This document shows positions 28,421 to 55,541 of a DNA stretch of 64,000 bases, piece by piece. The stretch lies in the NCBI GenBank assembly GCA_963662465.1, contig OY759599.1:6784001-6848000 (forward strand). Reading direction: 5' to 3'. Position 1 is the first letter of the stretch, and each line of letters opens with the position of its first letter. The position numbers were made by a program, and so were the translations under genes. The notes beneath the pieces were generated by a model, which did no database searches, was not told the DNA's origin, and worked only from the letters and a program-made list of their open reading frames with translations. The DNA is from Desulfatiglandales bacterium. GTDB lineage: Bacteria > Desulfobacterota > DSM-4660 > Desulfatiglandales > Desulfatiglandaceae.

Positions 28421-29284
28421 CTATTCCCCTTTTTTGGGCTTTTTGAAAACCAGAAAACTGCAGAGTTTGCAGATATCGAAGCCCGGATAGGTCTCGCCCG
28501 TGCGTGGAAAAGATACCCCGCCGTCACGAATCGTTCGCTCCAGGGTCCAGTGAAAAGTCGGTTCAAATTGTCCATAGGGCCAGATGTAGTTCATTTCCCC
28601 CTGTTCGGTTTTTCCGGCTGTTTTGCTGCTGCTGCACATCTGGGTGACATTCGGCTTTTTCGTGACATAACATTGGGCGCATCCATGACAAATGGATGAG
28701 TTCATGGTCATGACCGTTTCAAATGGATGGGTATCATGGGCCGCGCACCAGTCGTTGGCCATATGGTACGATTGCAGTGGGTCGCACATGCCATGAATCA
28801 GGTCGGGTTCAAAGGGCGCGGCGTGCAGGGGGGCTGTGGCAAAGGCCAGCAAACCCGGCGGCAGGCGTTTTTTGGTCTTGAGAAATTTCTCGGCCTGTTC
28901 CCGGCTTTTGGTGTATTTTAAGTGACTCTTTATTTCCGCTTCATCGATCTCTTTCCAGCCTAACACGTATTTTGCATTGGAACACCCTAGCTTGTCTTTT
29001 GTTCCCAGCAGGACATCCCCCCGCTGCCGGGATGCGGCCACATAGTGACAGAACGTATAGGGTCTGAGTCCCACCTGATAATCAATATTGGCTTTGAAAT
29101 CCGCCAGTTCTGCTTCGTCGAAAAAATATTTTATCGCTACGGGATAGTATTTCATTTTCAAAAGGTTGCGAAGCCCGAATACAATGTCCGACGGGCTCAG
29201 TTTACCATCGTTTACCTCTGCATTTTCAAGCAATCCCTTCGCTAAACTTACATCATCCATCAAAAGTCGGGTGTCTAATGTCAT
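28421..29284 (-). CDS. DUF169-like protein
   Basis: YPVAIK, TFCHYV, GCSNA, APL...PD, Cys-rich C-terminus. Confidence 0.7.
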   Translation of the reverse strand: MTLDTRLLMDDVSLAKGLLENAEVNDGKLSPSDIVFGLRNLLKMKYYPVAIKYFFDEAELADFKANIDYQVGLRPYTFCHYVAASRQRGDVLLGTKDKLGCSNAKYVLGWKEIDEAEIKSHLKYTKSREQAEKFLKTKKRLPPGLLAFATAPLHAAPFEPDLIHGMCDPLQSYHMANDWCAAHDTHPFETVMTMNSSICHGCAQCYVTKKPNVTQMCSSSKTAGKTEQGEMNYIWPYGQFEPTFHWTLERTIRDGGVSFPRTGETYPGFDICKLCSFLVFKKPKKGE

Positions 29285-29692
29285 CTATGATCTCCTGTCG
29301 CTGATTTTTTTTTAACCGCTTGCCCTTTTCATTTACATCTTCTGAGGTTGGCTATTGCAAATCCTATTTTAAGAACCGTTTAAAGTCAAACCACTTTTTC
29401 AATTGACTAAGGAACCTCAGTAATTCTATCAATCATTCAGCGCAATGATAATGCAGAGAGAAGTATTGCATTTTCTGGGAGCTATAGCGCTCAGATAAAC
29501 TGGTACAGGTCTGCTCAGATAAATTGATACACCAATTTTTTTTGGATTTCCCTACCTCTAAAGATAAAAACCCTTTACAGAAAAAGATACCCCTCGTAAT
29601 ACCCTATAATTTTGAGACCAATCAAAAAGAAAGAGGTATCACGAGGGTATGCCCAATTACATCAGTGACATAAGTGAGCAACTGGCTTTTTT

Positions 29693-30244
29693 ATAATAGA
29701 AATCCAAGGCCATTTTCAATTTATTTCTGGCTGGTACCGGGATGGAGAGGTCCGTGGTCTTGTTGCTCGCTATTATTTTGTTGTTCGCTCGGTTCTCAAG
29801 GAGAAACCCCACCTTAAAAACTGCCTGACTCGTTGCAAGCACTGCGGCATCTTTTTTATCACCCATCCCCGGAATGCCGGCCGAAATAATCTTGGTTGCC
29901 CCTTTGGCTGCCGGGAAGCTCACCGCCGAAAAAAATCCACGGAGAGAAGTACGGAGTATTACCGTAATAAAGAAGGCAAGGAAAAGAAAAAGGCCTTAAA
30001 CGAGAATCGCGGCAAAAAGGACAGCCCCCCGAAAGAAAAACAGGCGGAAACAATAGATGATGAACGTGAAGTGGTTGATGGCATTGTTCATCATGTTCGG
30101 ATGGTTACGAGCTTGATTGAAGGTCGTAATGTAAGCCTGGATGAAATTTATCGCATGCTGAACAATCCGATGAGACAACACAGCATCGACTCTGCGGAAA
30201 AATCGTTTTATGGTGGCCCTGGCTCTCGAAAAACTCCCCCGTGA
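29693..30244 (+). CDS. Cys-rich basic protein of E1; open frame has no standard start codon in its 5' part
   Basis: IIEIQGHFQFISGWY...CLTRCKHCGIFF...GCPFGCREAHRRKKS; similar to 49633-50049. Confidence 0.65.
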   Translation: MIEIQGHFQFISGWYRDGEVRGLVARYYFVVRSVLKEKPHLKNCLTRCKHCGIFFITHPRNAGRNNLGCPFGCREAHRRKKSTERSTEYYRNKEGKEKKKALNENRGKKDSPPKEKQAETIDDEREVVDGIVHHVRMVTSLIEGRNVSLDEIYRMLNNPMRQHSIDSAEKSFYGGPGSRKTPP

Positions 30245-30253
30245 GGAAGCAAA

Positions 30254-31150
30254 ATGGTCGATCAGATAGAAATTTCCAGTTTTGATTTACGATATGAGGA
30301 TTGCCGTTTGAAATCAGCAGGGACGGAAAGAGCCCTTTTGACCTCTGTGTCGGAAAACGGTATCCGGGATCCGCTCCAAGGGGTGGACATTGAAGACCAC
30401 AAAATTTTGCTCGATGGCTTCAAAAGATACCGGTGCGCAAAGAAATTGCATATCGAGATTGTGCCTTATCGGTCGATGGGGCGCGATGAGGCGAGTGGCA
30501 TCATTGATCTGATCCGGTTATCAAACACAAAATCCCTTAACATTCTGGAGCAGGCCCGTTTAATCGATGAACTGAAGCGAGGTCACCAGATGAGTCATTC
30601 AGATATCGCCGGACTGCTTGAAAAAAGCAAATCCTGGGTCAGCATGCGTTGCGGCATTATGGGTGAGATGAGTGAAACCGTGAAGAAAGAAGTTTTTGCC
30701 GGAAAATTTCCGGTCTATTCATTTATGTATACTCTGCGGGGGTTCATACGTATGAACACCGTTAAAAAAAGTGAAATTGATGAATTTGTTCGGTCCGTGT
30801 CAGGCAAAAAGCTGAGCATACGGGATATTGATCTGTTGGCAAATGGCTATTTCAAGGGTTCGGAGGAATTCCGGGAACAAATCAGAACCGGCAATCTTTC
30901 CTGGGGACTTGAGCGATTAAAACATCATAGCGCAATAAGCGATGGTCTGAGTAAGCGGGAAAAAACCCATTTGAAAACCCTCGAAACCATCTTGAGATAC
31001 ATACAGCGATTTATGGCGCAACAAAATGTTTCCTCCATGAGCAACGCATTTGCAGCCCAGGCCAACATGTTGTCGGGCGATATTATACAACTTTTTGATG
31101 CTTTTAAAATAGCAATGGAAGCCTTTCATGATACCACCGAACAAACGTAA
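30254..31150 (+). CDS. ParB/Srx-like N-domain + HTH protein
   Basis: SVSENGIRDPL, LLDGFKRYRCA, LEQARLI, IAGLLEKSKSWVS. Confidence 0.85.
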   Translation: MVDQIEISSFDLRYEDCRLKSAGTERALLTSVSENGIRDPLQGVDIEDHKILLDGFKRYRCAKKLHIEIVPYRSMGRDEASGIIDLIRLSNTKSLNILEQARLIDELKRGHQMSHSDIAGLLEKSKSWVSMRCGIMGEMSETVKKEVFAGKFPVYSFMYTLRGFIRMNTVKKSEIDEFVRSVSGKKLSIRDIDLLANGYFKGSEEFREQIRTGNLSWGLERLKHHSAISDGLSKREKTHLKTLETILRYIQRFMAQQNVSSMSNAFAAQANMLSGDIIQLFDAFKIAMEAFHDTTEQT

Positions 31151-32612
31151 AGCGATTTTCCTGCTGCATCAGGAGGGCATGGGCGTACGGGAGATCGCTC
31201 GCAGCATACACATCAGTCCCACCACCGTAATGGAAATTATCGGCCAAAAGGGCGAGATGCCTGAAATCCTACGTAAAGATAAAATCAAGATTGATTCGGC
31301 GCTTTTGGCAAATCTTTATGAAACATGTCAGGGCCGTGCGCAAAGAGTGTATGAAAAACTGACTGAAGAAGAAGGGATTGATGTTGCCTATTCAACCTTG
31401 ACTCGAATGCTCCGGGAACAGGGTTTGAGCCATAAAAAATCCGACCGGTGTCAACAGGTTCCGGACGTGCCCGGAGCTGAGATGCAGCATGACACGTCGC
31501 CTTATCGTATAAAACTGGGCAAAGAAATAGTGTTGGTCCAAGGAAGTCTTTTATATTTTCGGTATTGCAAAATTCGCTATCTGAAATTCTATCGTTCATT
31601 CAACCGGTTCCAAATGAAATGCTTTTTTCATGAAGCCCTTATGTACTGGCAATACGCGGCAGCGAACTGCATCATCGATAATACGAATCTGGCCCGTTTA
31701 CGGGGCACCGGCAAAGATGCCGTCATCGTTCCTGAAATGGAACGGTTCGCCAAACAGTACAGTTTCAAATTTGTATGCCATGAAATAGGGCATGCAAACC
31801 GAAAAGCAGGCAATGAGCGGGGTTTTTATACAGTGGAAACCAACTTTTTTCCAGGCCGTTCTTTTGAAAACCTTGAAGACATGAATCACCAGTCTTACAT
31901 ATGGGCGACTGATCGATCGGCCAACAGGCCCACCGGAAAGACGCGGCTGATCCCCTCCGTGGCTTTTGAATCTGAAAAACCATATCTCAGAAAAATGCCG
32001 CCATATGTCGAACCGCCCTACCTTGTTCATAAAAGAAAGATCGATCAGTACGGCTACGCCGCGGTTAATGGGAATTACTATTGGATTCCGGGAACGCGAC
32101 GTCATGACGTCAAGGTCCTGCAATATGCCGATTATTTAGATATTTATCACCAAAGAAAACTCTTGGGACGTTATGTTTTGCCGCCTGACGGCGTCAGGAA
32201 TGACGTCATCACTCCCGAGGGGGTAACAAAACCTTCTCACAAACCCTCGCAACGAAAAAAGCCAACGGCGCGGGAAGAAAACATTCTGCGATCAGATAAG
32301 GCCATTAATGATTATTTGAATTTCGCTTTACCCAAAAGTGGTAAGGCCAGGCATCACTTCATCCGAGCGCTTTTCAGCCTATATCGAAAAACCGCTCCTA
32401 CGGTTTTTATAAAAACGGTACAACGAGCCTTGAAATATCGCATTAAGGACATCAAAGTCATTGAAAACATAGTTGTTTTGATTTTAAGAGACGCTAGTAT
32501 CGAATTGGGGACACCTGAAATTGAACCGGATTTCACGAAAAGGGATGCCTATATCGAGGGCTGTTTTACCGATGAGCCGGATCTTTCCATTTATGAGGAT
32601 GAAAATGAATGA
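31128..32612 (+). CDS. istA: IS21 family transposase
   Basis: HTH, PGAEMQHD, IIDN, NRKAGNER. Confidence 0.9.
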   Translation: MIPPNKRKAIFLLHQEGMGVREIARSIHISPTTVMEIIGQKGEMPEILRKDKIKIDSALLANLYETCQGRAQRVYEKLTEEEGIDVAYSTLTRMLREQGLSHKKSDRCQQVPDVPGAEMQHDTSPYRIKLGKEIVLVQGSLLYFRYCKIRYLKFYRSFNRFQMKCFFHEALMYWQYAAANCIIDNTNLARLRGTGKDAVIVPEMERFAKQYSFKFVCHEIGHANRKAGNERGFYTVETNFFPGRSFENLEDMNHQSYIWATDRSANRPTGKTRLIPSVAFESEKPYLRKMPPYVEPPYLVHKRKIDQYGYAAVNGNYYWIPGTRRHDVKVLQYADYLDIYHQRKLLGRYVLPPDGVRNDVITPEGVTKPSHKPSQRKKPTAREENILRSDKAINDYLNFALPKSGKARHHFIRALFSLYRKTAPTVFIKTVQRALKYRIKDIKVIENIVVLILRDASIELGTPEIEPDFTKRDAYIEGCFTDEPDLSIYEDENE

Positions 32613-33351
32613 TGAGTTGATAAAGATGCTGAAATACCTTCGGCTCAATGTGTTGATTGAAAACTGGGATCGGTATCTCAAAATCGGCGCAAAAGGGGAT
32701 TATTCCCATGCGCGACTGTTGGAATATGTTGTTTCCGAGCAATATCAAATTAAAAAGGAAAACGCCCGCAAGATGAGAGTCAAACGAGCCGGTATTCCAG
32801 AAAAATTTGTTTTGGAGACCTTTCCTTTCAAGCGCCAGCCTAATCTCAATAAAAAGAGAATCGAATCCATATACGACGGTTTTGATTACATGACCAAATC
32901 CCGCAATATCATCTTCATTGGGCCGACGGGCACGGGAAAAAGCGGGCTGGCCACGGCGTTTCTGATCCACGCTATCAACCAGGGCTACAACGGGCTGTTT
33001 ATCACTTTCCCTGAACTGGTGGAACGTCTTTACCAATCGATGGCGGATAATACTCAGGCAAAGACCATCAAGAAGCTGTTATCCTATGATTGTTTGCTGA
33101 TTGATGAGCTTGGTTATATTCAAATAGAATCGGTTCAAGTGGGTCTATTTTTTAATCTAATGCAAAAAAGACATAAAAACAAAACGACCCTCATTACATC
33201 CAACCTCGGATTCGAAAAATGGAATTCCTTTCTTAAGAACAAGCATCTCACAGCCGCCCTGATCGATCGACTGACTGAAAGCAGTCATATCATCAATATG
33301 AAAAACTGCATAAGCTTAAGGCAGAGGCTTGATGAGGTTCCGGAGACATGA
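32605..33351 (+). CDS. istB: IS21 helper ATPase
   Basis: GPTGTGKS, LIDELGY, ITSN, ALIDRL. Confidence 0.93.
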   Translation: MNDELIKMLKYLRLNVLIENWDRYLKIGAKGDYSHARLLEYVVSEQYQIKKENARKMRVKRAGIPEKFVLETFPFKRQPNLNKKRIESIYDGFDYMTKSRNIIFIGPTGTGKSGLATAFLIHAINQGYNGLFITFPELVERLYQSMADNTQAKTIKKLLSYDCLLIDELGYIQIESVQVGLFFNLMQKRHKNKTTLITSNLGFEKWNSFLKNKHLTAALIDRLTESSHIINMKNCISLRQRLDEVPET

Positions 33352-33842
33352 CAAAACTTTTTTCGGCAAAGGAGCTTTACAGCGTGAGAAATGACATCCC
33401 GATTTCCGGTCTGATTGAAAACGTGCTGAATATACCGGCTCGCACAACTGAAGGGGTTTTCAGATTTCTTTGTCCTGTATGCGGGGAATTTAACACGGCG
33501 GTTAATCCAAAAACCAATCTGGCCAGATGTTTCTACTGTAAAAAAAACTTCAACACCATTGATCTGGTGATGATTGTCAAAAAGGCAAATTTTGTAGAAG
33601 CCGTCCGCTTTCTGAAAGCACACAAAAATAGATGTCAAAGTCATTGTGTTTCCAAAAAATCGGAAGATCACACTCAATCTCCCCAGCATATTGCCGACAT
33701 TGTAAAATCAATCATGCCCGCCAAACCGGATTCTGACCATCCAGAATCCATTGAAAGCATATCGAAGCGGGTTTTATGCATCGAGAAGATGCTTGAGCAA
33801 ATGACCCATCAAATGGGAATTATAGTAAAAACAATCACATAA
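33348..33842 (+). CDS. CHC2 (DnaG-type) zinc-finger protein
   Basis: FLCPVC...NLARCFYCKKNFNTIDLVM...FVEAV. Confidence 0.8.
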   Translation: MTKLFSAKELYSVRNDIPISGLIENVLNIPARTTEGVFRFLCPVCGEFNTAVNPKTNLARCFYCKKNFNTIDLVMIVKKANFVEAVRFLKAHKNRCQSHCVSKKSEDHTQSPQHIADIVKSIMPAKPDSDHPESIESISKRVLCIEKMLEQMTHQMGIIVKTIT

Positions 33843-34257
33843 CTCATTTCCTGGAATTTCATGCGAAAATAGGGTGTTCTGTTTTGATAGTCGTGTAACG
33901 CTAATCAAATTTTGGAGGTGGAAATGCGAGGCGGAAAGCGTGCTGGAGCCGGTCGAAAAAAGAAGCCGGATCACTTGAGACGTGAGTTGGTGACAATTCG
34001 ACTACCGAGGTGGATGATTACACAGCTTAAAAACAATGGTGAAATTGGCTATTTGATTGAGGATCTACTGGCAAAAAAGGGTTCCCTGAATCCACCCCGG
34101 GCGGCCACCCAAAATCCCCCACCTGTGGCCACTTGAAAATCCCCCACCTAAAGAGGTTCAAAATGTAGATTTTTGATCTTCGGCTCAATTCACAAAATGG
34201 TGACAGGACGTTATACCATCTCCCAATGCAATTTAATTGAATTGGGAGGAAGAAAGG

Positions 34258-36942
34258 ATGAACGTTTTGAAGCCGGACAAGAAATCTACCATCATTACCC
34301 TACTTAAAAATGGCGTTGGTCAGCGTGAAGTACATCGTAAGACCAATATTGACAGGAAAACGATCCGAAAATACGCAAAAGAAAGTGGCTTTTTACCCGA
34401 AGATTCCGACTTAAATTCAAGATCCCCCACCCTGGCCACCGGGGCTGATTGCATCATCAGTGAAAATCCCCCACCCCGGCCACCGGTAAACAGCACATTC
34501 AAGGGAGAAAAACGGGCGATTCCACTCCATGCCAGATCAGCATGTGAGCCTCACCGAGAATGGATTGAAAAGCAGGTGAAGCTCGGGAGGAATGCCGTAG
34601 CGATTTACCAAGATTTGGTCGAGCGATTTGCCTTTACCCACAAATACAACAGCGTAAAGCGGTTTGTAAGGGGACTGAGAAAAGAGGACCCCAAGCAATT
34701 CGATCGATTGGAGTTTTTACCAGGGGAAGAGGCTCAGGTAGACTATGGCACGGGAGCCAAAACGCTTCATTCGACAGGGAAATACCGTAAAACTCGTCTC
34801 TTTATAATGACGTTGAAATACTCCAGGCGCTCATTCCGGAAAGTAGTTTGGCAATCAAGCAAAGAAACATGGGCAAAACTTCATGAGGAGTCATTTCGAT
34901 ATTTCGGAGGTTGCCCCCAATATGTGGTTCTGGACAATTTGAAAGAGGGCGTCATCAAACCGGATCTTTACGAACCTGAATTGAACACCGTCTATGCGGC
35001 CATGCTGGAGCATTACGGGGTTGTTGCAGATCCGGCAAGAGTTAGAGACCCAAACCGGAAAGGGACTGTTGAAAATGCCGTACAGCATACCCAAGACACA
35101 GCTTTAAAAGGTCGCACATTTGAATCGATTGAACGACAGAATGAATGGCTTATGCACTGGGAGGAACAATGGGCTGCTCAGCGGATACACGGGAGAACCA
35201 AGCGACAGGTTGAAGAAATGTTTCAAGAAGAAAAACCGTACCTTAAACAACTTCCCTTAACTGCATTCAGCTATTTCAGCCAAGAAATCCGTACGGTCTG
35301 GGATGACGGCGCCATTCAGGTGGGGAAATCCTATTATTCAGCCTTGCCGGCGCCCCTTTATACAAAGGTTATTGTCAGGATTTATGACAGAGAGATTGAG
35401 ATTATCAATCCTGTAACAATGGAGATTTTCCGCAGGCACGCCAAGAACAGCAGGCCGGGATCTGTCAATATACCGCCGGAAGATAGGATTTTTAATCCTT
35501 CACGTCAAACAACGTATCTCTTTGCCAAAGCAGAGAGCATTGGTCCCGCAACTTTAAAATTATGCAAGGTCTTGTTTGAGGAAGAAGGCAGAACCGGTCA
35601 AAGACGAATACAGGGGATTGTCAACCTGGTCCGACATTATGAGGCCCGTTACGTGGAACAGGCCTGCATCAAAGCCAATAATGTGGGGCTGCGCAATTAC
35701 AAATCCATCCGCAACCTTGTCAAAACGTTAGCCGAAAAAAACCAGGAAGAAAAGGATTCTGAGGGGCTGATTCAGGAACATAAATTAATACGCCCTCCGG
35801 AAGATTATGCTGCATTCTGGGAGCAGCACGCCGCACAGACACCGGTTTCGGAGGAAGGAGCAAACCGTTTTGTCATGCCCAAAGAGCAACTACCCGCAGT
35901 TTGGAAAAATGCAAGCTGGGAGAGAGTGATTGATGTTTTTGGCCTGGAAGTTGATGGAAACCGCCGCTGTAAGGCCAACGAGACATGGATCAAATCGCCT
36001 TTTACAGGCGAAAAAACTGCTTCGCTGCATTTGAACCTGACGGAGAATATCTTCAAGGATTTCAGCAGTGGCCTGGGGGCGAAAGTCGGTGTACTCAATT
36101 TCTGCCAGGATCTTTTAGCGCTGCGAGGCCAGGCAATGAATTGCTATGAAGTTGCCTCCTGGATGGTGGAAAATGGAATTTCAAATTTGGATATACGTTC
36201 ACGCGAGGTTAAAAACCATGTTCCTGAACTCAAAAAACCGAAAGAAAACAAACCGATTCAAGTGGATTTAAGGCGTTTTGTACAGCCGCAACATCCAGAA
36301 TTAAAACATCGACAGGTTTCAGAGGCGACATGTCGCTATCTGGGATGTGGTTTTCTCCCGGAAAGGCCGAATGGAAACAAACAGTCACCTCTCAATGGCC
36401 GGTTGGTGTTTCAAGTGCGGGGAATGTCCGGCGCTATACTGACACATGTCGGTCGTGCATTGACACTGCAGCAAGAAAAAACGAATGGGAAATACTGGAG
36501 CTTTCCGTTCTTCAAAAAACTGGAAATATACAACCAGGACAAACTGTTATCAGATGCTTCAGCAAAGGATCAAGTTCAGCGGCTTGGCTTGGTGCTGGTA
36601 GAAGGTTTTTTTGATGTGGCAGTTTTGGTCGAATCGGGTTGTTTGAACGTCGGAGCACTGATGGGGTCGCACATGACCGAACAACAGGCAGCCCGAATAA
36701 AGTTAATCAGCTCACACATTGAGATTCCCAAAATTACCGTTTTTTTGGACAGGGATGAAGCTGGGAGGATTGGCGCACAAAAAGCAGTTACTGTGCTGCG
36801 GAAAAATGGGTTTTCAGCCGAGGCCTTTGACTGGAACCAGACCCTTGGGTCGTCATTTGTGAAAATCCCAATGGCCGTTATGGATCCAGGCGATATGTCG
36901 TTAAGGCAGCTAAAGTGGTTGAGAAAAAAGGGAAACATTTGA
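34258..36942 (+). CDS. istA: IstA transposase fused to a DnaG-like primase (degenerate ZBD + TOPRIM)
   Basis: PGEEAQVDY, DNLK, RKGTVE, followed by SPF..EKTASL..FKDFSSG, GRLVFQ, VGRAL, VEGFFD, FLDRDEAG, DPGD. Confidence 0.88.
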   Translation: MNVLKPDKKSTIITLLKNGVGQREVHRKTNIDRKTIRKYAKESGFLPEDSDLNSRSPTLATGADCIISENPPPRPPVNSTFKGEKRAIPLHARSACEPHREWIEKQVKLGRNAVAIYQDLVERFAFTHKYNSVKRFVRGLRKEDPKQFDRLEFLPGEEAQVDYGTGAKTLHSTGKYRKTRLFIMTLKYSRRSFRKVVWQSSKETWAKLHEESFRYFGGCPQYVVLDNLKEGVIKPDLYEPELNTVYAAMLEHYGVVADPARVRDPNRKGTVENAVQHTQDTALKGRTFESIERQNEWLMHWEEQWAAQRIHGRTKRQVEEMFQEEKPYLKQLPLTAFSYFSQEIRTVWDDGAIQVGKSYYSALPAPLYTKVIVRIYDREIEIINPVTMEIFRRHAKNSRPGSVNIPPEDRIFNPSRQTTYLFAKAESIGPATLKLCKVLFEEEGRTGQRRIQGIVNLVRHYEARYVEQACIKANNVGLRNYKSIRNLVKTLAEKNQEEKDSEGLIQEHKLIRPPEDYAAFWEQHAAQTPVSEEGANRFVMPKEQLPAVWKNASWERVIDVFGLEVDGNRRCKANETWIKSPFTGEKTASLHLNLTENIFKDFSSGLGAKVGVLNFCQDLLALRGQAMNCYEVASWMVENGISNLDIRSREVKNHVPELKKPKENKPIQVDLRRFVQPQHPELKHRQVSEATCRYLGCGFLPERPNGNKQSPLNGRLVFQVRGMSGAILTHVGRALTLQQEKTNGKYWSFPFFKKLEIYNQDKLLSDASAKDQVQRLGLVLVEGFFDVAVLVESGCLNVGALMGSHMTEQQAARIKLISSHIEIPKITVFLDRDEAGRIGAQKAVTVLRKNGFSAEAFDWNQTLGSSFVKIPMAVMDPGDMSLRQLKWLRKKGNI

Positions 36943-36999
36943 TTTCCATCGCCACGTTCTCGGTGGCGCGGAAATTTGTTTAACCTAAACGGCCATCCG

Positions 37000-37475
37000 A
37001 AGGAATCGGGCTTATGTATAAGCGAATATGGTCGGACTTTTTGAATCTCGTTACACGATAATCATAGGGCTTGATTGTTTTGGAGGTGAAAATGGGAGGC
37101 GGAAAACGTATGGGAGCCAGTCGAAAAAAGAAATCAGATCATTTGAGACGTGAACTGCTGACAATTCGATTGCCGAAGTGGATGATTTCACAGCTCAAAA
37201 ACAAATGTGAAATTGGCTATTTGATCGAGGATCAATTAAGGAATCGGGCTTATGTATAGGCGAATATGGTCGGACTTTTTGAATCTCGTTACACGATAAT
37301 CATAGGGCTTGATTGTTTTGGAGGTGAAAATGCGAGGCGGAAAACGTACGGGAGCCGGTCGAAAAAAGAAATCAGATCATTTGAGACGTGAACTGCTGAC
37401 AATTCGATTGCCGAAGTGGATGATTTCACAGCTCAAAAACAAATGTGAAATTGGCTATTTGATCGAGGATCAATT
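37000..37475 (+). repeat. 238 bp tandem duplication covering the operator and small gene
   Basis: Units start AAGGAATCGGGCTTATGTATA at 37000 and 37238. Confidence 0.95.
37092..37259 (+). pseudogene. 3'-truncated copy of the small regulator gene
   Basis: MGGGKRMGASRKKK...; lacks the PDDY tail. Confidence 0.7.
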
Positions 37476-37527
37476 GAGGAAGATAGATTTTTTGGATATC
37501 CCGGATGACTATGACATTGATAACTGA
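37330..37527 (+). CDS. Small basic DNA-binding-like protein (RGGKRxGAGRK + RHH-like)
   Basis: MRGGKRTGAGRKKKSDHLRRELLTIRLPKWMISQLK. Confidence 0.75.
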   Translation: MRGGKRTGAGRKKKSDHLRRELLTIRLPKWMISQLKNKCEIGYLIEDQLRKIDFLDIPDDYDIDN

Positions 37528-37550
37528 AATCGAGAAAGGAGAAACTGAAT

Positions 37551-38324
37551 ATGCCGATGTCAATGCAGGAAATAGAGAAAAGTCTAGGAACGCTACGTTT
37601 AAGCGGTATGCGAGCAACATTAGAAACCCGAGTGATACAGGCAAATCAAGGAGAATCTTCTTTCCTGGAAGTCTTTTCATGCCTGCTTCAGGATGAGTTA
37701 GATTACAGGCGGTCGTGCCTGATAGAACGTAGATTTAATGCTTCCGGTCTTCGTGAGAGAAAAACATTGACTGAGTTTGATTGGGGCTTTAATCCAAGAC
37801 TTCCAAAAAAGGAAATTTTTGAACTGGTGACCATCAAATTTATACACAACGGTGAAGACGCACTCCTGATCGGTTCTCCCGGGACTGGGAAAAGCCATAT
37901 CGTTAAAACAATTGCTCATGCTGCAACACAGGCATGCCATCAGGTTGTTTATCGTGAGGCCCATACTTTCTTTGAAGATGTCTTCGAAGCAGCCCAAACA
38001 GGGAAGACAAAAAAAATAACAAAGCTTTTTTCAGAAGCAGACTTGCTAATAATAGATGATCTTTTCCTGAGAAAAAGGGTCCCTGAACATGCGGCAGATG
38101 ATCTTCTTGATATCATACTGAATCGTTATTCCAAAAGAAAAAGTACACTCATAACATCAAACCGTCCGGTGGAGGACTGGGGTAAACTGCTCAGAGACAA
38201 TGCCGCATCCTCTGCGATCCTTGACAGGTTGCTCCACCGAGGCCATTTGCTCAAATTTGAAGGAAAAAGCTACAGGCTAAAGGAGGCTGCAGAAAAACTT
38301 GCCATAGGGAAGAAAAAAGAATAA
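37551..38324 (+). CDS. istB: IS21 helper ATPase
   Basis: GSPGTGKSH, LIIDD, ITSNRP, AILDRLLH, SYR. Confidence 0.95.
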   Translation: MPMSMQEIEKSLGTLRLSGMRATLETRVIQANQGESSFLEVFSCLLQDELDYRRSCLIERRFNASGLRERKTLTEFDWGFNPRLPKKEIFELVTIKFIHNGEDALLIGSPGTGKSHIVKTIAHAATQACHQVVYREAHTFFEDVFEAAQTGKTKKITKLFSEADLLIIDDLFLRKRVPEHAADDLLDIILNRYSKRKSTLITSNRPVEDWGKLLRDNAASSAILDRLLHRGHLLKFEGKSYRLKEAAEKLAIGKKKE

Positions 38325-39201
38325 AGTGTAACCGTTCTGTCGCTGAAGATCTTTCCAATGCCACGGTCAAGATCCTACATGGCCACCTTCACAGGTGGGG
38401 GATTTTGGGGTGGCCACAAGTGGGGGATTTTGAAGTGGCCATCCGGGTCCACCTGATGATTATGATTTCAATAGCTGAAATCGACGGACCCATTCATCTC
38501 TTTTCTACGATTTGATTGAAAACGCCTTCCAACCGACATCTGAAATAGCCCCAGGTTGTATCCAACACTGAAGTCCCCCACAAGTCAGCGTGTTTGTCCA
38601 TAGCTTAGCACGGCTTTTCGGATCGAACCTGTCGCAAATATCCAGGTCAAATTTCGATACGGCCTGCTGGTTTGTAGTCGTTTGCTCAGCCGTTCCGGCA
38701 TCAATCTCCTTCTCCAACTTAAGCCATTTTTCCGCTGCGGGGTAGCAGCAAAGGCGGGGTTCTATTCAATTCTTGGGGCGGGGTGAGCATAGCTGCAGGG
38801 TAGTCGTGCGAACGAACGTATCAGTTTTCATGAGCAGAAGTGTATCAGTTTATCTGAGCGCCATAGGGGAGGGCATACTCCAAGGCACGAAACAAATCTT
38901 GTAACTTAAGTGAGTAGATGTAGGTAATGGCATTTACCCGTTTGACAATATCTGACCTGTACCAAGTGTTAAGGCTTTTTATATCGATCACCCAACCAGG
39001 TTTTTTTTCATTTGGTACTACTATCCATGGATATTCATTTGGATAAATCTCAATCGCCGATTCAGCCTTTATCCATAAGATGGAAAGATACTCACGGTCA
39101 GGGCAAGTAGAATCTTTGATAAAGTCTGCGAGAAAATCTTGAAAATTTTCTTTCATATCATCACGTCTCATCTTCGCTAAGCATAAATATTTTCGCAGCC
39201 T

Positions 39202-39246
39202 CGCACGGTAGGAACGCCGGTTACCCGGCGCCCCCCGCACAGAACC
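39202..39246 (-). mobile_element. 3' remnant (half DV + DVI) of a class-E-like group II intron
   Basis: GGTTCTGTGCGGGGGGCGCCGGGTAACCGGCGTTCCTACCGTGCG, near-identical to 1796-1840. Confidence 0.85.
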
Positions 39247-39325
39247 ACTATATAATGCCCATCAAAACCAGTTTATAACTTGGGTATATTACCCATTTCA
39301 CCCAAGAACCGGTGAAGAAATTTAT

Positions 39326-39637
39326 GTGGTAGGTACCAGAAACCATCGTGGAGAAACTTGTTTTGTAACAAAGAAACCTGATGGTCGCCATGAATTGATA
39401 CCTGCGTGGATGACCAATCCAAAGTATGAAAAGATATCCCTCGGCTCAAAACCCGCTATCGAAATCAGGGCGCTTAAGAATTTATATTGCTTAATAGTGA
39501 ATAGAAAAATACCGTTTCCTCCTGATGAAGTCAATTCGAAAACAAGGAGGAAAGATGACGAAACAAAAATATCATCAACTTCGGCTTTGGGATTATTTAC
39601 CATCACCGATCGAAATTCCAAGAGAAACACGAAATAG
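39326..39637 (+). CDS. Small accessory protein of the recombinase element (Y4bD/DUF5372-like); frame is open back to the left end
   Basis: YPFHPRTG upstream in frame; IPAWMT. Confidence 0.6.
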   Translation: MVGTRNHRGETCFVTKKPDGRHELIPAWMTNPKYEKISLGSKPAIEIRALKNLYCLIVNRKIPFPPDEVNSKTRRKDDETKISSTSALGLFTITDRNSKRNTK

Positions 39638-39716
39638 ATTGATTGATTTCCTTGCAGAGCTTCTGTCAGGTTTCTGGCAAAATTCTGAGGGTAACAGAAA
39701 TAGAAAAGAGAAGTAG
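39555..39716 (+). CDS. Small hypothetical protein upstream of the recombinase
   Basis: MTKQKYHQLRLWD...LAELL; AGGAGG RBS. Confidence 0.5.
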   Translation: MTKQKYHQLRLWDYLPSPIEIPRETRNRLIDFLAELLSGFWQNSEGNRNRKEK

Positions 39717-40267
39717 TTTCACTAACGTAAAATCGCGGTCTGATATTGGAAGCAGTCAAGAGACTGGAGTTGTTGAAGCAAGCAGCTTAATCCGACTCAG
39801 AAAAATCGTAACGATAAATCATAAATAGCTTATTTTCCGATAGAAATAGGTGTTTAACTGAAAAACGTACACGGTATTCAAAAATATTGGACGAATTTGA
39901 AGGTGAAAAGGAGCGATGAAAATGAGAGGTGGGAGTCGAAAAGGCGCTGGTCGAAAAAGGAGTCCTGAACATCTGAGGCGTATCCCCGTCACGATTCGGT
40001 TACCGAAGTGGATGGTTTCACAGATCAAAATGAAAGGCGAGATAGGGTATTTGATTGAACTCGAATTAGCGACGAAAAAGGGTTTTCTCGACTTACCAGA
40101 TGATTATCTGGTCGGAAGCTGACTAAGGTGCGGTTATGGTCGCTCTTTTAATGGATATTTCGGCAGGAGCCACCGGAGCCTTCTATGACCTCGTCGCAGC
40201 TTACAATTACTCATATGGGGGTCAAAATTCGGTTGTCGCAAGAGGTCAATTTTCGGTTGACATTTCG
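39710..40267 (+). mobile_element. Right-end remnant of a fourth IS21-like element
   Basis: IS21-type doubled end GGTCAAAATTCGGTTGTC..GGTCAATTTTCGGTTGACATTTCG; flanked by an AGAAAAGA direct repeat; carries the small regulator gene. Confidence 0.55.
39922..40122 (+). CDS. Small RGGxRxGAGRK regulator-like protein
   Basis: MRGGSRKGAGRKRSPEHLRRIPVTIRLPKW...LPDDY. Confidence 0.75.
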   Translation: MRGGSRKGAGRKRSPEHLRRIPVTIRLPKWMVSQIKMKGEIGYLIELELATKKGFLDLPDDYLVGS

Positions 40268-40290
40268 AGAAAAGAAAGGTGGAAATGAGC

Positions 40291-42372
40291 ATGAGCAATA
40301 AAATCAATGCTGAACATATTAGTCGGGAAGCATGTATATATATCCGTCAGTCAACACCGGGCCAAGTTCTACAGCATCGTGAAAGCCAACTTTTACAATA
40401 TGGCTTGGTAGAAAGGGCAAAAGAATTAGGATGGAACGAGAAAAACATATGGATGATAGATAGTGATTTGGGAATAACTGCATCGGGATGCGTTGACAGA
40501 AAAGGATTCCAGAATCTTCTTTCATCTGTGTGTGAAGGAAGAATAGGGGGTATTTTCTCGATTGAATCATCGAGGTTGGCCCGCAACGGTCGAGAGTGGC
40601 ATACGTTGCTTGAGATCTGTGCACTTAAAAAAACGGTTCTTGTAGATCAAGGAGCTGTTTATGACCTAAACGTGTCAAATGATCGTTTGCTCCTGGGCTT
40701 AAAGGGAGAAATGAGTGCAATGGAATTGAGCCTATTAAAGGAACGTTCTCAGGCGGCAATACAACAAAAAGCGAAGCGGGGAGAATTATATCTTACTGTA
40801 CCGGCAGCCTATATAAAGACCAGGGATAATAAGCTGAAAAAGAATCCTGACAAACGAATTCAAGAAGTCATTGATTTGGTATTCACGAAATTCAAGGAAT
40901 ATGGCGCCCTTCGTCGGGTGTATCATTGGTTTTTAGATAAACAGATTGAGATTGCTGTTGTTTCCAGCGGTAAAGGGGAACGTAGGATAGAGTGGAAACT
41001 ACCGTCTGCTCATACCTTCTCGCATATAGTGAACAACCCAATTTACGCCGGCGCCTACGCCTATGGCCGGACTAAAACAGAGGTAACTTTTGAAAATGGG
41101 CGCAAGCGACTGAGGAAGGGTATTCGTAAGGAACAAAAGGATTGGGACGTTTTAATATTGGATCACCATGAAGGTTACATCACATGGGAAGAGTACCAGT
41201 ATAACATGGAGATACTAACTCAAAATACAAATAAGAAAAGGCCGGTGGTGAGAGGAGCTGTTCGCGGAGGAAAGGCATTGCTTGGAGGTTTGTTAAGATG
41301 CGGTCATTGCGGTAGAAAGTTAATTGTACGATACCAAGGCCGTAATGGAACTCATAAACGTTATGAGTGTAGCCGCAAACGAGGTAACGAGACAGGAAAG
41401 GCGTGTATATCATTTGGTGGATTCCGTGTTGACCGGGCTGTTACGGATTTTCTTTTGAAAGTATTATCACCGATAGGATTAGAAGCTTCTTTAGAGGCGA
41501 TAAAGAAAATCAACCATGAATCGGATTCAGTGAAACGGCAACGGGAACTGGAGTTGGAACAAGCGCGTTATGAAGCTTTACGGGCAAAACGTCAATACAA
41601 TGCAGTGGACCCTGATAATCGTTTGGTAGCATCTACATTGGAGAAGGATTGGAATGACGCTCTTGTTAAGGTAGCAAGATTGGAGAATGAGATTACCGCT
41701 ATGGGGTCGAACACCCCTTCGCTTTCCCCTGAGGAAGAGACCGAGATCAGAGATCTGTCACAAGATTTACCTCGTGTATGGAATGATCCGTGTTGCTCTT
41801 TGGATTTAAAGAAGCGTATAATCCGGACGGTTATCAAAGAGATCGTTGTTTATTTGGAAGAGCAAAAGATCAAATTAATCATTCACTGGGAAGGGGGTGA
41901 GCATACGGAATTGGAGGTACTGAAGAATAAGTCTTCCAGTTACCCATTGAAAACCGATGTTGATACAAAAAAGATAATATCCGATTTGGCTAGAATTATG
42001 CCTGATAAACACATCGTGGCCTTTCTCAACCGTGTGGGTACAAAGACTACAAAGGGATATACCTGGAATCCGGTAAGGTTGCGTTCATTTCGAAATAGGC
42101 ATAATATCCCTGTATATCATGAAGGAGAGAGGCAGCGACGAGAAGAATATACGGTAGCTGAAGCAAGCGAAAGGCTGGGTATTGGCAGCACCAAAGTTTG
42201 GAGACTTATACAACATGAGATTCTACCCGCCAAGCGAGTATGTTCCGGTGCTCCATGGATCATTTCAAAAAAGGACCTTGAATCTGAAGTGATAAAAAAG
42301 GCAGCTCATTCCGGGCTTCCAAAGAGCCCGCTTTCAAGAAACTCAAAACAACAAGTCTTTAATTTTCAATAA
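40291..42372 (+). CDS. Large serine recombinase (resolvase + recombinase + Zn ribbon + C-terminal HTH)
   Basis: YIRQST, SRLARN, NPIYAG, LRCGHCG. Confidence 0.93.
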   Translation: MSNKINAEHISREACIYIRQSTPGQVLQHRESQLLQYGLVERAKELGWNEKNIWMIDSDLGITASGCVDRKGFQNLLSSVCEGRIGGIFSIESSRLARNGREWHTLLEICALKKTVLVDQGAVYDLNVSNDRLLLGLKGEMSAMELSLLKERSQAAIQQKAKRGELYLTVPAAYIKTRDNKLKKNPDKRIQEVIDLVFTKFKEYGALRRVYHWFLDKQIEIAVVSSGKGERRIEWKLPSAHTFSHIVNNPIYAGAYAYGRTKTEVTFENGRKRLRKGIRKEQKDWDVLILDHHEGYITWEEYQYNMEILTQNTNKKRPVVRGAVRGGKALLGGLLRCGHCGRKLIVRYQGRNGTHKRYECSRKRGNETGKACISFGGFRVDRAVTDFLLKVLSPIGLEASLEAIKKINHESDSVKRQRELELEQARYEALRAKRQYNAVDPDNRLVASTLEKDWNDALVKVARLENEITAMGSNTPSLSPEEETEIRDLSQDLPRVWNDPCCSLDLKKRIIRTVIKEIVVYLEEQKIKLIIHWEGGEHTELEVLKNKSSSYPLKTDVDTKKIISDLARIMPDKHIVAFLNRVGTKTTKGYTWNPVRLRSFRNRHNIPVYHEGERQRREEYTVAEASERLGIGSTKVWRLIQHEILPAKRVCSGAPWIISKKDLESEVIKKAAHSGLPKSPLSRNSKQQVFNFQ

Positions 42373-42406
42373 CGTACGGAGGTGTGTATTATGCCGCTAT
42401 TACCCT

Positions 42407-43301
42407 GGGGGACGTGTTGCAGATAGCGGCTGATAAAGGTTTGAATCGGCAGGGAGATGAGTTCCACCTTCTCACGACCGTAATTGAAGGTCACGTTCCC
42501 GTTTTCAATGCTGTAGATGCGTTTGTTTGAAATTGGCCCGCCTCTCAAGTAACGCGCCAGGTAAATCAACACGCCTTCGCCGTATGAATAGGTCTCTTTG
42601 AGCTTGACGTTCCATTTTTTGCGGCGGCCCAGTTTATTGAAGAGGTTCCGGGCCTGCTGAGGCCCCATACCCTCGGGCAGAACCAGTTCGTTCCGATCCA
42701 GGGCTTTTCTCAAATAGTAGAGGTTCTTGCCTCGAAATACCGCCCGGACGATGCCAAAGGGCAAAAGGAATTTTTTTGATGAAGCGATCCACTCGCCGGC
42801 GATCAGCCCACCGGCCGTTACCAGACAATGCAGATGCGGATGAAAGTCCAGTTTTCGGCTCCAGGTATGCAGTGAGGCGATGATGCCGACTTTGCCCCCC
42901 AAATGCTTCGGATCTCCAAGGAGTTCGGAAAGGGTTTCAGTGGCGCTTTTGAACAGCAGATTGCCCATAAGCTTGCGGTTCAACCGCCATAAGTCGTGCA
43001 ATTCATCGGAGATGGTGAAAATAACATAGAAATGTTCGGTGTTTAAGATGCGAGCCTTTTGTTTTGCCAGCCAACGTTCCACCTGGGTAAAAGCGCAGAG
43101 GGGGCACATACGATGTTTACACGAGTTGTACCAGTGCCTTTTGAAGTGACCGTCCGGGCACGCCTGCACGTGACCCCCCAGAGCAGATGTGCGGCAACTC
43201 ATCAGACGGTGTGCCGCTTCACGAATATGTTCCGGAAGAAGATGGGTCTGATCATAGAGGGCATAGCCTATAAGAAAGATGCTCTGAATCGTCGCTTCCA
43301 C
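42407..43301 (-). pseudogene. IS91-like HUH transposase cassette copy 3, 3'-truncated
   Basis: Matches copy 2 with 3 amino-acid differences up to YLQHVP, then diverges. Confidence 0.9.
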
Positions 43302-43361
43302 TGAAACCTCCTTTATTTACTGGGAGTTACGACGTTAGTTCCCCCGCTGTCCAGCGGGTCT

Positions 43362-43422
43362 GTCCAACGGGCTCTTCAGCGGGCGCGGCTTTTTGCGATC
43401 CGCTGAAAGAGCTTGGTTATGC
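43362..43422 (-). other. attC site
   Basis: GCATAAC..CTTTCAGC...GCTGAAG-agccc-GTTGGAC. Confidence 0.88.
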
Positions 43423-43461
43423 CCGTTTTGCCTCATGCCTTGCTTTGGATGTTTGGTGTTA

Positions 43462-43713
43462 TTATGTCGGTTCAGACTGAACCATCTGCATTTCCTCAGT
43501 CAACGTTTCTGGCGATATATCTTGTTCATTGGGCCAAGTCACAGCACCAAATAGAACTCCAACCTGATTAAAATAATTTATATTCTTAAGTTCTCTGAAC
43601 ATTCCTCTTTCCAGATAGGGGCTCATGTCAAAAATTCCTTTTCGCCCATCTTCCGTCTCGACATAAATTTTATAGCCAGGTTTCGGCTTCACGATTTTTA
43701 CATCCCAGTGCAT
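43462..43713 (-). CDS. DUF2442-like protein (putative TA component)
   Basis: VKP...DG..G.FDM.PYL...F..V....GAVTWPNEQDISPE. Confidence 0.85.
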   Translation of the reverse strand: MHWDVKIVKPKPGYKIYVETEDGRKGIFDMSPYLERGMFRELKNINYFNQVGVLFGAVTWPNEQDISPETLTEEMQMVQSEPT

Positions 43714-52486: not shown

Positions 52487-53146
52487 CCAATTCTCAAAAG
52501 AAAACGAACAAAATGCCATGTTTTCGCTTTTAACCAAGGCCAATGAACGGCAATGGGAAGTCATTGAGCAGTCTGTTTTACTTCAGGAATTACATCGGCG
52601 TTTTGGGTGCAGCCTCTCCCATATTGCAACCCGAATAGGGCGCGACAAGAGTTTTGTAAAACGGCGGCTGGACCTGGTTGAAGCCCTGCCGGAAAATATT
52701 TTGAGAACCGTGATTGCAGGCTCACTTTCAACCTGGGCTGCCAGCCGTGTCATGGCGCCGTTGGCGCGCGCCAACGGTGAAGACGCACAAAAACTGTTGG
52801 CCCACCTGGAAAAAGAACCTCTATCCACAAGGGAACTGGCCCGTTTCTACGCACATTACCAGAAAAGCAACCGGTCTGTTCGAGACCACATGCTGGAAAA
52901 TCCATCCCTTTTCATAAAAGTTCTCGAACAAAGAACCCAGTCTAAACAAGCCAAAGAAGTTCATGATGGACCGGAAGGCAAATGGTTCAAGGATATTGAA
53001 ATGGTATATGCGGTTCTCAAACGTCTGGTGAAAACCGTTTCGCATGTCCATTACCCAAAAAGCGATCAGTTGAAGAAACAAACGCTCAAAACCTGGGTGA
53101 AAAAGATAGAAAAACAAGCACTGGAACTCAAGAAAGCGACCCAATT

Positions 53147-54529
53147 ATGATCCGACAATCCAAAAAAGATGCCATTGTGGAATTGAAAAAAACCGGCATG
53201 AGTTTGCGCGACATCGCCAAAACCCTGAAGGCCGGTCGCAATACCGTCACGAAGGTTTTAGATGATCATGACGAAGAGGCGGTACCCCAAAGGAACTCCC
53301 GGTATGAAGAACATGTCCCGTTGATCCGCGAGCTTTTCAAGGAATGTAAAGGAAATGCCGTGCGAGTAGCCGAGGAACTGGAAAGCCGCCAACAGATCAA
53401 AATCCCTTATCAGAGTCTGACCTGGATTATGAGAAAGTACGAGATCCGGGAACGTAAAAAAAGACGGGCGGGCCAATACCATTTTAAACCCGGTCAGGAG
53501 ATGCAGCATGATACGTCACCCCATCTGGTTGTCATTAATGGGAAAAAAATGTCGACCCAGTGCGCGTCCCTGACCCTGGCCTTTTGCCGAAGGATTTTTA
53601 TTCAGTATTACCCCTGTTTTACCCGGTTTGAGTGCAAGGTTTTCCTAAAAAAAGCATTCGAGTTTATGGACGGGGTGTGTTCCCGGTGCATGGTTGACAA
53701 CACCAATGTTATTGTGGCCGGCGGCACCGGGCCTGATGCATTGATTGCGCCTGAAATGAAATACTTCGGCGATATGTATGGAACCCGGTTTGAGGCCCAT
53801 GCTGTAGGAGACGCCAATCGAAGTGCCCGTGTGGAAAGGCCTTTTCATTTTGTGGAAAACAATTTTCTTCCCGGTAGAACATTTGTTAGCTGGCAGGATT
53901 TGAACCGGCAGGCAATCGACTGGTGCCGGAATACAAGCGATAAAAAGTTTAAACGGGCTTTAGGGATGACGCCGGATGAGGCCTATGTCATTGAAAAGCC
54001 ATATCTCATTGATTTACCGGCATACCAGCCGCCAGTCTATGTGGCAGAACACAGGGTAGCCGATGTTCAGGGATATGTGCACTTGGACACCAACCGCTAT
54101 TCAGTCCCTGAAGCGCTGATTGGGAACTCCCTGGAAGTACAGAAACATTGGCTCAAGGTCATCGTTTACGACAAAAACACAAAAGTGGCGGAACATGACC
54201 GCATACTGGATAAACGCAACACCCGAACAACCCTGCCCGGTCACCATGTTCCCATTCGAAGAAAAAAAGATCCCCGAATCCCTTCAAAAGAAGAACAGCT
54301 GTTGACGGGAGAGGATGCCATCCTGGATGAGTATGTGGCTGAACTGAAGAAAAGAAGTCACGGTCGCGGTGTGGTCAAGTTACGTCGGTTGCTTCATCTG
54401 AAACGCACTTATCCCGGGGAACCTTTTTTGAAAGCCATAACACAGGCGCTTAAATATGGACTTTTTGATTTGTCGCGTCTGGAAAACATTATTCTCGATT
54501 ATATCGCGGGAGACTTTTTTGATCTATGA
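53147..54529 (+). CDS. istA: IS21 family transposase
   Basis: PGQEMQHD, MVDN, NRSARVER, NRYSVP. Confidence 0.92.
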   Translation: MIRQSKKDAIVELKKTGMSLRDIAKTLKAGRNTVTKVLDDHDEEAVPQRNSRYEEHVPLIRELFKECKGNAVRVAEELESRQQIKIPYQSLTWIMRKYEIRERKKRRAGQYHFKPGQEMQHDTSPHLVVINGKKMSTQCASLTLAFCRRIFIQYYPCFTRFECKVFLKKAFEFMDGVCSRCMVDNTNVIVAGGTGPDALIAPEMKYFGDMYGTRFEAHAVGDANRSARVERPFHFVENNFLPGRTFVSWQDLNRQAIDWCRNTSDKKFKRALGMTPDEAYVIEKPYLIDLPAYQPPVYVAEHRVADVQGYVHLDTNRYSVPEALIGNSLEVQKHWLKVIVYDKNTKVAEHDRILDKRNTRTTLPGHHVPIRRKKDPRIPSKEEQLLTGEDAILDEYVAELKKRSHGRGVVKLRRLLHLKRTYPGEPFLKAITQALKYGLFDLSRLENIILDYIAGDFFDL

Positions 54530-55245: not shown

Positions 55246-55343
55246 GATGTTCGCCAAAGGGCCGGTTTTGAGGTCTGAATATCACCGGTCTGTTTGAATC
55301 TCGTTACACGAATATCAGAAATTACCTTGTCTTGGAGCTTGAA

Positions 55344-55541
55344 ATGAGAGGTGGAAAACGGGTAGGCGCCGGCCGAAGAAAGAAACCGGAACATTTGAGA
55401 CGTGAACTGCTCACCATTCGTCTCCCCAAATGGATGATTCTACAGCTGAAAAAAAACGGGGAAATTGGATATTTGATTGAGGATCAATTGGCGAAGGGAG
55501 GCCTCCTGAATTTACCGGACGACTATGACATAGACAAATAG
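55344..55541 (+). CDS. Small RGGKRxGAGR regulator-like protein
   Basis: MRGGKRVGAGRRKKPEHLRRELLTIRLPKW...LPDDY. Confidence 0.75.
   Translation: MRGGKRVGAGRRKKPEHLRRELLTIRLPKWMILQLKKNGEIGYLIEDQLAKGGLLNLPDDYDIDK

Follow-up and report, generated by a model that had tools for sequence, protein, structure and literature searches.

The 64,000 nucleotides analysed here (positions 6,784,001 to 6,848,000 of contig OY759599.1 from a Desulfatiglandales bacterium; hereafter the window) contain an insertion sequence (IS) of the IS21 family in which the gene of the transposase, IstA, runs on without a stop into a module of the DnaG primase type. The IS is a mobile and recently active member of its family, and the IstA-primase fusion that it carries is widespread, under selection and, it appears, undescribed. 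By its sequence and modelled fold, the C-terminal module is a minimal DnaG-type primase, consisting of a zinc-ribbon fold stripped of its ligands and a following RNA-polymerase/TOPRIM domain; as judged from the structure models, it is a tethered domain, and it is produced as part of the transposase. The best-supported reading, which we infer with about an even chance of being right, is that the element primes its own DNA replication during transposition.

Architecture of the fusion protein

The fusion gene and its parts lie in the window as follows, with lengths in amino acids (aa), the support for each assignment in brackets, and model confidence as the predicted local distance difference test (pLDDT):

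34258..36942, + strand: istA-primase fusion gene, 894 aa plus stop (translation of the open reading frame, profile matches)
34258..35847, + strand: IstA part, aa 1-530 (NF033546; full-length structure model)
35746..35871, + strand: flexible linker between IstA and primase, aa 497-538 (pLDDT <50 in the full-length model)
35881..36171, + strand: zinc-ribbon-like domain without zinc ligands, aa 542-638 (Foldseek, 2au3 and 1d0q)
36268..36939, + strand: DnaG-type RNA-polymerase domain, aa 671-894 (TIGR01391, Toprim_2, Toprim_4, phmmer against PDB, Foldseek)
36583-36837, + strand: TOPRIM fold, aa 776-860 (within the RNA-polymerase domain)

The open reading frame (ORF; 34237/34258..36942, + strand) is open throughout and encodes 901 aa from a TTG or 894 aa from the ATG at 34258, which is the start in line with those of the relatives. 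Its N-terminal part is matched by NCBIfam NF033546 (IS21 family transposase) over aa 14-333, with 261.6 bits against a cutoff of 160; the Pfam rve model does not reach E 0.01 on the fusion protein of the window, and an rve domain is precomputed for most of its relatives. In the secondary structure of the full-length model, the IstA part proceeds from a helix-turn-helix (HTH) through a Pro-rich linker, a second HTH, the DDE core (D162, D226, E272) and a beta-barrel to a helical C-terminal region; among unfused IstA proteins the closest is P0004 (547 aa), whose alignment covers query aa 1-529. The full-length model (69-row alignment, mean pLDDT 66.5, predicted template modelling score 0.32) has well-formed domains and disordered linkers at aa 48-92, 497-538 and 646-668. 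The second of these, which separates IstA from the primase module, differs between relatives in both length and sequence; its low pLDDT, together with the low template modelling score of the whole chain, indicates that the module is tethered, not docked.

The C-terminal module is matched by TIGR01391 (dnaG) over aa 698-861 (profile positions 184-337, E 5.4e-21) and by Pfam Toprim_2 and Toprim_4 over aa 778-858, the latter two above their own cutoffs. When the last 364 aa are compared with the sequences of the PDB by phmmer, the matches at E <0.01 are DnaG primases only (S. aureus 4e2k, Aquifex 2au3, B. subtilis 5guj and P. aeruginosa 5vaz; E 2e-7 to 3e-6). An AlphaFold2 model of the C-terminal 360 aa (32-row alignment) has a mean pLDDT of 92, and its best Foldseek match is the Aquifex primase structure 2au3, comprising the zinc-binding domain (ZBD) and the RNA-polymerase domain (E 2.3e-16); further matches are the DnaG cores of B. 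subtilis, S. aureus, E. coli, M. tuberculosis and P. aeruginosa, the primases of T4 and T7, and the isolated zinc-binding domain 1d0q. The sequence contains EGFFD (aa 782-786), DRDEAG (aa 831-836) and DPGD (aa 876-879), which we take to be the EGxxD, DxD and DPxD motifs of TOPRIM, and ends 15 residues beyond the last of them. In the alignment to 2au3, S580, T583, D601 and S604 occupy what are presumably the Cys/His/Cys/Cys zinc-ligand positions of DnaG.

The ORF, profiles and motifs thus bear out an earlier note on this DNA, which had described IstA, a Cys-less ZBD-like domain and an intact TOPRIM core in one frame; the profile and structure search of the C-terminal ~360 aa for which it asked returns DnaG-type primases by TIGR01391, by phmmer against the PDB, and by Foldseek. 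The same note had pointed to a possible internal ribosome-binding site and ATG at 35853-35877. The ATG (35875-35877) and a purine-rich GGAGGAAGGAG (35850-35860), 14 nt apart, do exist, but they are not conserved: the corresponding M540 is found in 62 of 96 full-length fusions (the set is defined below), and 19 of 21 distinct relatives compared at the DNA level have another codon here (ATC, GTC, ATT, ATA, GAA and others). One other relative has ATG, but lacks a motif resembling a Shine-Dalgarno sequence; the sole such motif within 5-13 nt precedes a GTA codon, and the motif of the window itself lies at least 14 nt upstream. An internal start for a separate primase is thus rejected as a conserved trait.

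Distribution and conservation of the fusion

The best match in a phmmer search across the protein library is a 913-aa protein that aligns end to end at 66% identity; the same search returns fragments that span the junction, as well as stand-alone proteins of ~380 aa that match the C-terminal module only. Scanning species-representative genomes with an alignment of the module gave 78 loci, which were sorted by tblastn with the IstA, primase module and IstB of the window:

39 of 78 loci: complete fused ORF (>=840 aa), immediately followed by istB
6 of 78 loci: fused, cut by a contig end
6 of 78 loci: stop or frameshift between IstA and primase (either decay of the copy or an error of assembly)
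14 of 78 loci: IS-type fragments
12 of 78 loci: stand-alone or chromosomal DnaG-like, without IstA or IstB
1 of 78 loci: no match at 1e-5

The complete loci provide the search in other genomes that the earlier note had called for, and exclude its proviso that the fusion might be unique to this copy. The hosts are mostly Desulfobacterota and Acidobacteriota, and several copies can occur in one genome (24 matches in G401, 9 in G402, and 4 each in G403 and G404). In G401, loci L058, L059, L061, L073, L074 and L077 start inside the primase module (query residues about 130-250), most of them continuing into istB and lacking an IstA upstream; these may be 5'-truncated copies of the IS.

A collection of 5.8 billion proteins yields 566 clusters that match the module at E<=0.001. 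Among the 120 clusters listed, 95 have at least 840 aa, most of these with precomputed rve and Toprim domains, and the source names of the listed clusters read 'IS21 family transposase', 'transposase' or 'hypothetical protein'; database names, which speak of the transposase only, leave the primase invisible in annotation. Of 400 other genomes, sampled evenly from the phylum of the bacterium analysed here, two match at E<=1e-40, one through a 946-aa fused frame and one through two stand-alone genes of 369 aa. Such patchy presence is expected of an IS, and draft genomes often lose repeats.

The window protein and the 95 long clusters together form a set of 96 full-length fusions, in which module identity is 58-96%; the median identity to the window is 72.5% for IstA as against 65.8% for the module. 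The DDE residues of the transposase (D162, D226, E272) are kept in 95-96 of the 96. The acidic residues of the primase are likewise kept (E782, D786, D831 and D833 in 96/96, D876 in 95/96, D879 in 94/96), as are the basic residues R715 and R733 (96/96 each). The former zinc-ligand positions hold S580 and D601 in all 96 and S604 in 95, and position 583 is T in 86 and S in 10.

Ratios of nonsynonymous to synonymous substitution (dN/dS) were obtained by the Nei-Gojobori method for pairs of complete loci with dS 0.05-1.2, the ranges being taken from the non-redundant pairs among 225. IstA gives 0.09-0.23, the ZBD-like part 0.08-0.38 and the RNA-polymerase domain 0.08-0.35. By this measure, purifying selection acts on both parts of the module about as strongly as on the transposase. 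That the domain is inactive and dispensable, which the earlier note had named as an outcome that would speak against it, is made unlikely by the catalytic residues, invariant across the 96 fusions, and by dN/dS values of 0.08-0.38.

Origin of the primase module

Three stand-alone relatives from the genome scan (L062, L064 and L065; about 370-440 aa) are 37-42% identical to the module and have neighbours that encode a MobA/VirD2 relaxase, MobC/NikA, a type IV coupling protein, ParA and a Rep3 initiator; in all three, Pfam still detects the CHC2 finger. A quick maximum-likelihood tree, built from 38 modules with three chromosomal DnaGs as the root, places all 24 fused modules in one clade (Shimodaira-Hasegawa-like approximate likelihood-ratio support 93), with one stand-alone protein, the 383-aa P0010, nested inside it. 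The sister of this clade is one further stand-alone protein, and the primases of mobilisable elements come next. P0010 (59% identity) may be a split form or a fragment, and a metagenome scan for its genomic context found no locus. The branches of the tree are compatible with the fusion having arisen once, and these relationships make it most likely that an IS21 lineage acquired the module in a single event from the stand-alone primases of mobilisable plasmids or of integrative and conjugative elements (ICEs). The module thus resembles a plasmid or ICE primase of the type that works without a helicase partner.

The insertion sequence and its mobility

The fusion gene is part of an IS of 4352 bp (window 34096-38447), whose boundary was set by aligning its three copies in this genome with 12-kb flanks, identity stopping where the flanks diverge. 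Its remaining features are:

34091..34095, no strand: left target-site duplication TCCAC, 5 bp (repeated after the right end)
34096..34149, + strand: left terminal inverted repeat (two direct copies of the GGCCAC...AAAATCCCCCAC motif)
37000..37481, + strand: tandem duplication of a 238-bp unit (self-match within the IS)
37092-37259 and 37330-37527, + strand: small ORFs of 55 aa and 65 aa, one per 238-bp unit, each with its own Shine-Dalgarno sequence
37551..38324, + strand: istB, AAA+ helper ATPase, 257 aa (PF01695 E 7e-51; NF038214 212.5 bits against a cutoff of 200)
38393..38447, + strand: right terminal inverted repeat (two copies of the GGCCAC...AAAATCCCCCAC motif in inverse orientation)
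38448..38452, no strand: right target-site duplication TCCAC (flank comparison)

The three copies, all in a single-contig genome of 8.16 Mb, are 100% identical and have different flanks. Two of them have clean 5-bp duplications (TCCAC for the copy in the window, and CCGTC); the third, copy C (genome 7835547-7839898), has six matching bases, tcaaga, plus one extra T by its left end, which may reflect the manner in which the ends were brought together prior to insertion. The terminal inverted repeats are imperfect and start with CCCGG, so that the ends read CCCGG...CCGGG (34096-34100 and 38443-38447); the CA dinucleotide of IS21 is absent. The empty site is represented by an intact copy of E1, the element into which the IS has inserted, and, in runs X1 and X4, by the joint 34090>38448.

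In the runs of two other organisms, the IS lies between different flanks and is about 96-97% identical; the contigs diverge from the window at 34096, and their right loose ends lie at 38447-38451. A 4235-bp contig of run X9 (another organism) contains the whole IS, with the ORF free of indels, and a 2933-bp contig of run X1, which may be the source sample, covers 34119-37051 with zero differences. These contigs span the junction intact; with three identical copies and with fusions elsewhere, they show that the fusion is neither unique nor the sequencing artefact that the note had allowed for. Run X8, a metatranscriptome, has contigs over parts of the IS at 90-99% identity, which are no proof of transcription.

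The start of istB is 608 bp past the stop of the fusion gene, compared with about 20-50 bp in relatives, because of the small-ORF insert. The 238-bp unit within this insert is in tandem in all three copies of the genome and single in runs X4 and X9 (joint 36999>37238). A promoter and terminator scan gives 10 promoter-like sites against 6.1±2.6 expected, a difference that carries no weight, and an Rfam scan of 29000-43500 finds no family. Elsewhere in the genome, a fragment corresponding to aa 1-139 of the fusion (97% identity; 2861202-2861618, - strand) adjoins a copy, at 2855525-2858840, of another IS21-type element of the window, E3; the fragment is probably a truncated older copy.

A proposed model of self-priming

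The excerpts of PMC11208146 on which we draw describe IstA tetramers that synapse the ends and IstB decamers that present bent target DNA, with the beta-barrel of IstA touching IstB; in these excerpts, the C-terminal portion of IstA is invisible in the holo-transpososome and without a defined role, and both the fate of the non-transferred strand and the copy-out/paste-in route of IS21 are left open. If the present IS follows the canonical course, IstA tetramers would synapse its ends and IstB would deliver the target. Up to four tethered primase modules would then hang from the transpososome, near the single-stranded DNA exposed at the intermediate, be this the copy-out/paste-in or the strand-transfer structure proposed for IS21. 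The modules, for which template-directed primer synthesis is predicted from their residues and fold, would lay RNA primers on the exposed single strand, and a host polymerase could copy the element without waiting for the assembly of the host helicase and primase. A more far-reaching version, possible though somewhat doubtful, is that the element has a minimal primosome of its own: a helicase-independent, tethered primase would start lagging- or complementary-strand synthesis on the intermediate, perhaps with the DnaC-like IstB, and copy-out would become independent of the restart of host forks. Sitting at the C-terminus of IstA, the fusion amounts to a natural experiment on the replication question of IS21, and what it predicts is a transposition of which DNA synthesis is an inherent part, one that the element is able to arrange on its own.

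Several observations weigh against self-priming. The DnaG zinc-binding domain is required for template recognition, and neither Cys nor His is found at any of the four zinc-ligand positions in any of the 96 fusions; with its zinc ligands lost, the module may have an altered primase activity or none. The TIGR01391 match stays far below the equivalog cutoff (74.9 against 283.6 bits), and Pfam finds no DnaG helicase (DnaB)-binding domain. End-to-end joints, as expected of circles or tandems, are absent from four runs, all of which are represented by contigs, and contigs drop rare forms. The insertions have no orientation bias relative to replication, 6 of 12 being co-directional, a sample of low power: in this genome (G000; skew origin near 5.74 Mb, terminus near 1.78 Mb) all three are co-directional, the sign of the 40-kb skew being right about 83% of the time, and in G402 three are co-directional and six head-on, with three of the calls made on near-zero skew. 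Finally, canonical IS21 elements manage without a primase.

Alternative functions

Some of these observations would fit a module that makes no primers and instead binds single-stranded or forked DNA, steering or licensing transposition, for example by sensing forks or gaps; targeting of replicating DNA by some other transposons offers a loose parallel. The zinc ligands, gone from every fusion, and the missing helicase-binding domain would be of no concern for such a role, and R715, R733 and K/R745, the basic residues that are conserved, would equally suit plain binding of single-stranded DNA. However, plain binding would not demand the acidic metal-binding residues, which are invariant or nearly so, and a module that senses forks gains nothing from the 12 insertions, which, at their low power, have no bias in replication orientation. 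We thus consider this explanation unlikely, though it fares best among the alternatives.

TOPRIM is the catalytic core of nucleases as well as of primases, and the module could be a nuclease whose target is the non-transferred strand or flanking DNA. The pathway would then be altered, for instance through release of the element, much as happens in Tn7 through a second nuclease. Foldseek does give weak matches to the Toprim domain of RNase M5, at rank 50, and the excerpts of PMC11208146 cited above describe as unsettled what becomes of the non-transferred strand in IS21. However, the module retains the whole architecture specific to DnaG, from the ZBD fold through the N-terminal subdomain of the RNA-polymerase domain to TOPRIM. 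Its top structural matches are primases throughout, and the nearest relatives are the primases of plasmids and ICEs; a nuclease is improbable.

The descent of the module from primases of mobilisable elements would fit a plasmid-like role, apart from the chemistry of transposition, in which it would prime the excised circular IS, or the complementary strand when a carrier plasmid or ICE enters by conjugation; the two other IS21-type elements of the window have ParB-like genes, one of them together with a primase zinc finger, a hint of functions of the plasmid type in this group. Against this, the fusion is kept covalent in every complete copy (39 ORFs) and the internal start is not conserved, which argues for action at the transpososome, and neither a replication initiator nor an origin was found inside the 4352 bp. 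There is, in our estimate, little chance that such a role is the right one. That the fusion is an assembly or sequencing artefact, or the primase a dead passenger domain, is hardly credible in view of the three identical copies, the contigs of independent runs across the junction, the 39 complete fused ORFs in other genomes, the invariant catalytic residues and dN/dS well below 1.

Neighbouring mobile elements

E1, into which the IS has inserted, is a separate IS21-type element (window 29482-34095 and 38448-38866), whose intact copy of 5028 bp lies at genome 8094473-8099500. It has inverted ends with two GCTCAGATAAA-type repeats, target duplications of GGGAG (5 bp) and CCTTTGC (7 bp), and five genes, encoding a ParB-like protein of 298 aa, a distant IstA of 494 aa (just 102.8 bits with NF033546), an IstB of 276 aa, a CHC2 protein of 164 aa and a small ORF. 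The CHC2 gene is located as follows:

33348-33842: CHC2 zinc-finger protein of E1, 164 aa (PF01807 E 1.1e-7)

The free CHC2 finger that the earlier note had seen in E1 is thus real, but it belongs to a different IS21-type element, which the IS happened to enter. Its homologues form 1013 clusters at E<=0.001, of about 165 aa and mostly on contigs of 1-5 kb. We considered it as a candidate for the missing zinc finger, supplied in trans, and rejected it: it has no BLASTP similarity to the ZBD-like domain of the fusion, and with this query an E1-type CHC2 protein is found in two of five other fusion-bearing genomes, so that it is not required in general.

E3 (window 52487-55802, 3316 bp) is likewise of the IS21 type and encodes a ParB-HTH protein of 210 aa, an IstA of 460 aa, an IstB of 239 aa and a small ORF; besides this copy, the genome has 24 matches to it of >2 kb with an identity of >=99.4%, and 23 of these are full length. 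A small basic protein of 55-69 aa is common to the three otherwise unrelated IS21-type elements of the genome (33924-34136, 37092-37259, 37330-37527 and about 55330-55530), with the core MRGGKR...RRELLTIRLPKWMI.QLK..GEIGYLIEDQL. Pfam has no family for it, and our guess is a ribbon-helix-helix regulator. Between the elements, nucleotide identity is 79-88%, their IstA proteins being just 22-25% identical; the small protein seems, from this comparison, to have been exchanged between the elements. Further on, a large serine recombinase of 697 aa, whose C-terminal HTH is of the excisionase type (40279-42372, + strand), adjoins an IS91-family (Y2) transposase (42366-43301, - strand), the region being a nest of mobile elements.

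Comparison with known systems

Like canonical members of the IS21 family (IS21, IS5376), the IS encodes a DDE transposase (IstA) together with an AAA+ helper (IstB), each here above its NCBIfam cutoff, and it has inverted ends with two repeats each and short target duplications. It differs in the 360-aa DnaG-type primase module appended to IstA, in the small extra ORF that this lineage has between istA and istB, and in length, typical members being roughly 2-2.7 kb and the present IS 4352 bp. The ends differ as well, CCCGG...CCGGG standing in place of the CA end described for IS21 in the excerpts of PMC11208146.

With bacterial DnaG, the module has in common the ZBD fold, the RNA-polymerase domain with TOPRIM, and the conserved acidic and basic residues; unlike DnaG, it is without zinc ligands and without the helicase-binding C-terminal domain, and it is fused to a transposase. 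The stand-alone primases L062, L064 and L065 have the same two-domain layout and the same C-terminal end motif, but they are separate genes near mobilisation and Rep genes, and they retain the CHC2 finger. In the full-text literature, we found no description of a transposase-primase fusion in IS21 or in any other DDE IS, with ISfinder/TnPedia and most subscription journals outside the search.

Phage Mu also combines a DDE transposase with an AAA+ helper, and its strand-transfer intermediate must become a replication fork; Mu, however, relies on the restart primosome of the host, whereas the present element carries a primase module of its own. If the minimal-primosome version is right, this would be the first case of a DDE insertion sequence demonstrated to prime replication of its own DNA, and direct evidence for a replicative route of IS21-type elements. 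In having its own replication enzyme, it resembles the self-synthesising transposons (casposons and Polintons), which use a protein-primed DNA polymerase and other integrases; it differs from them in being a DDE insertion sequence with a primase only, and the idea of mobile elements that bring a replication enzyme of their own would then extend from polymerase-carrying giants to a 4-kb bacterial IS.

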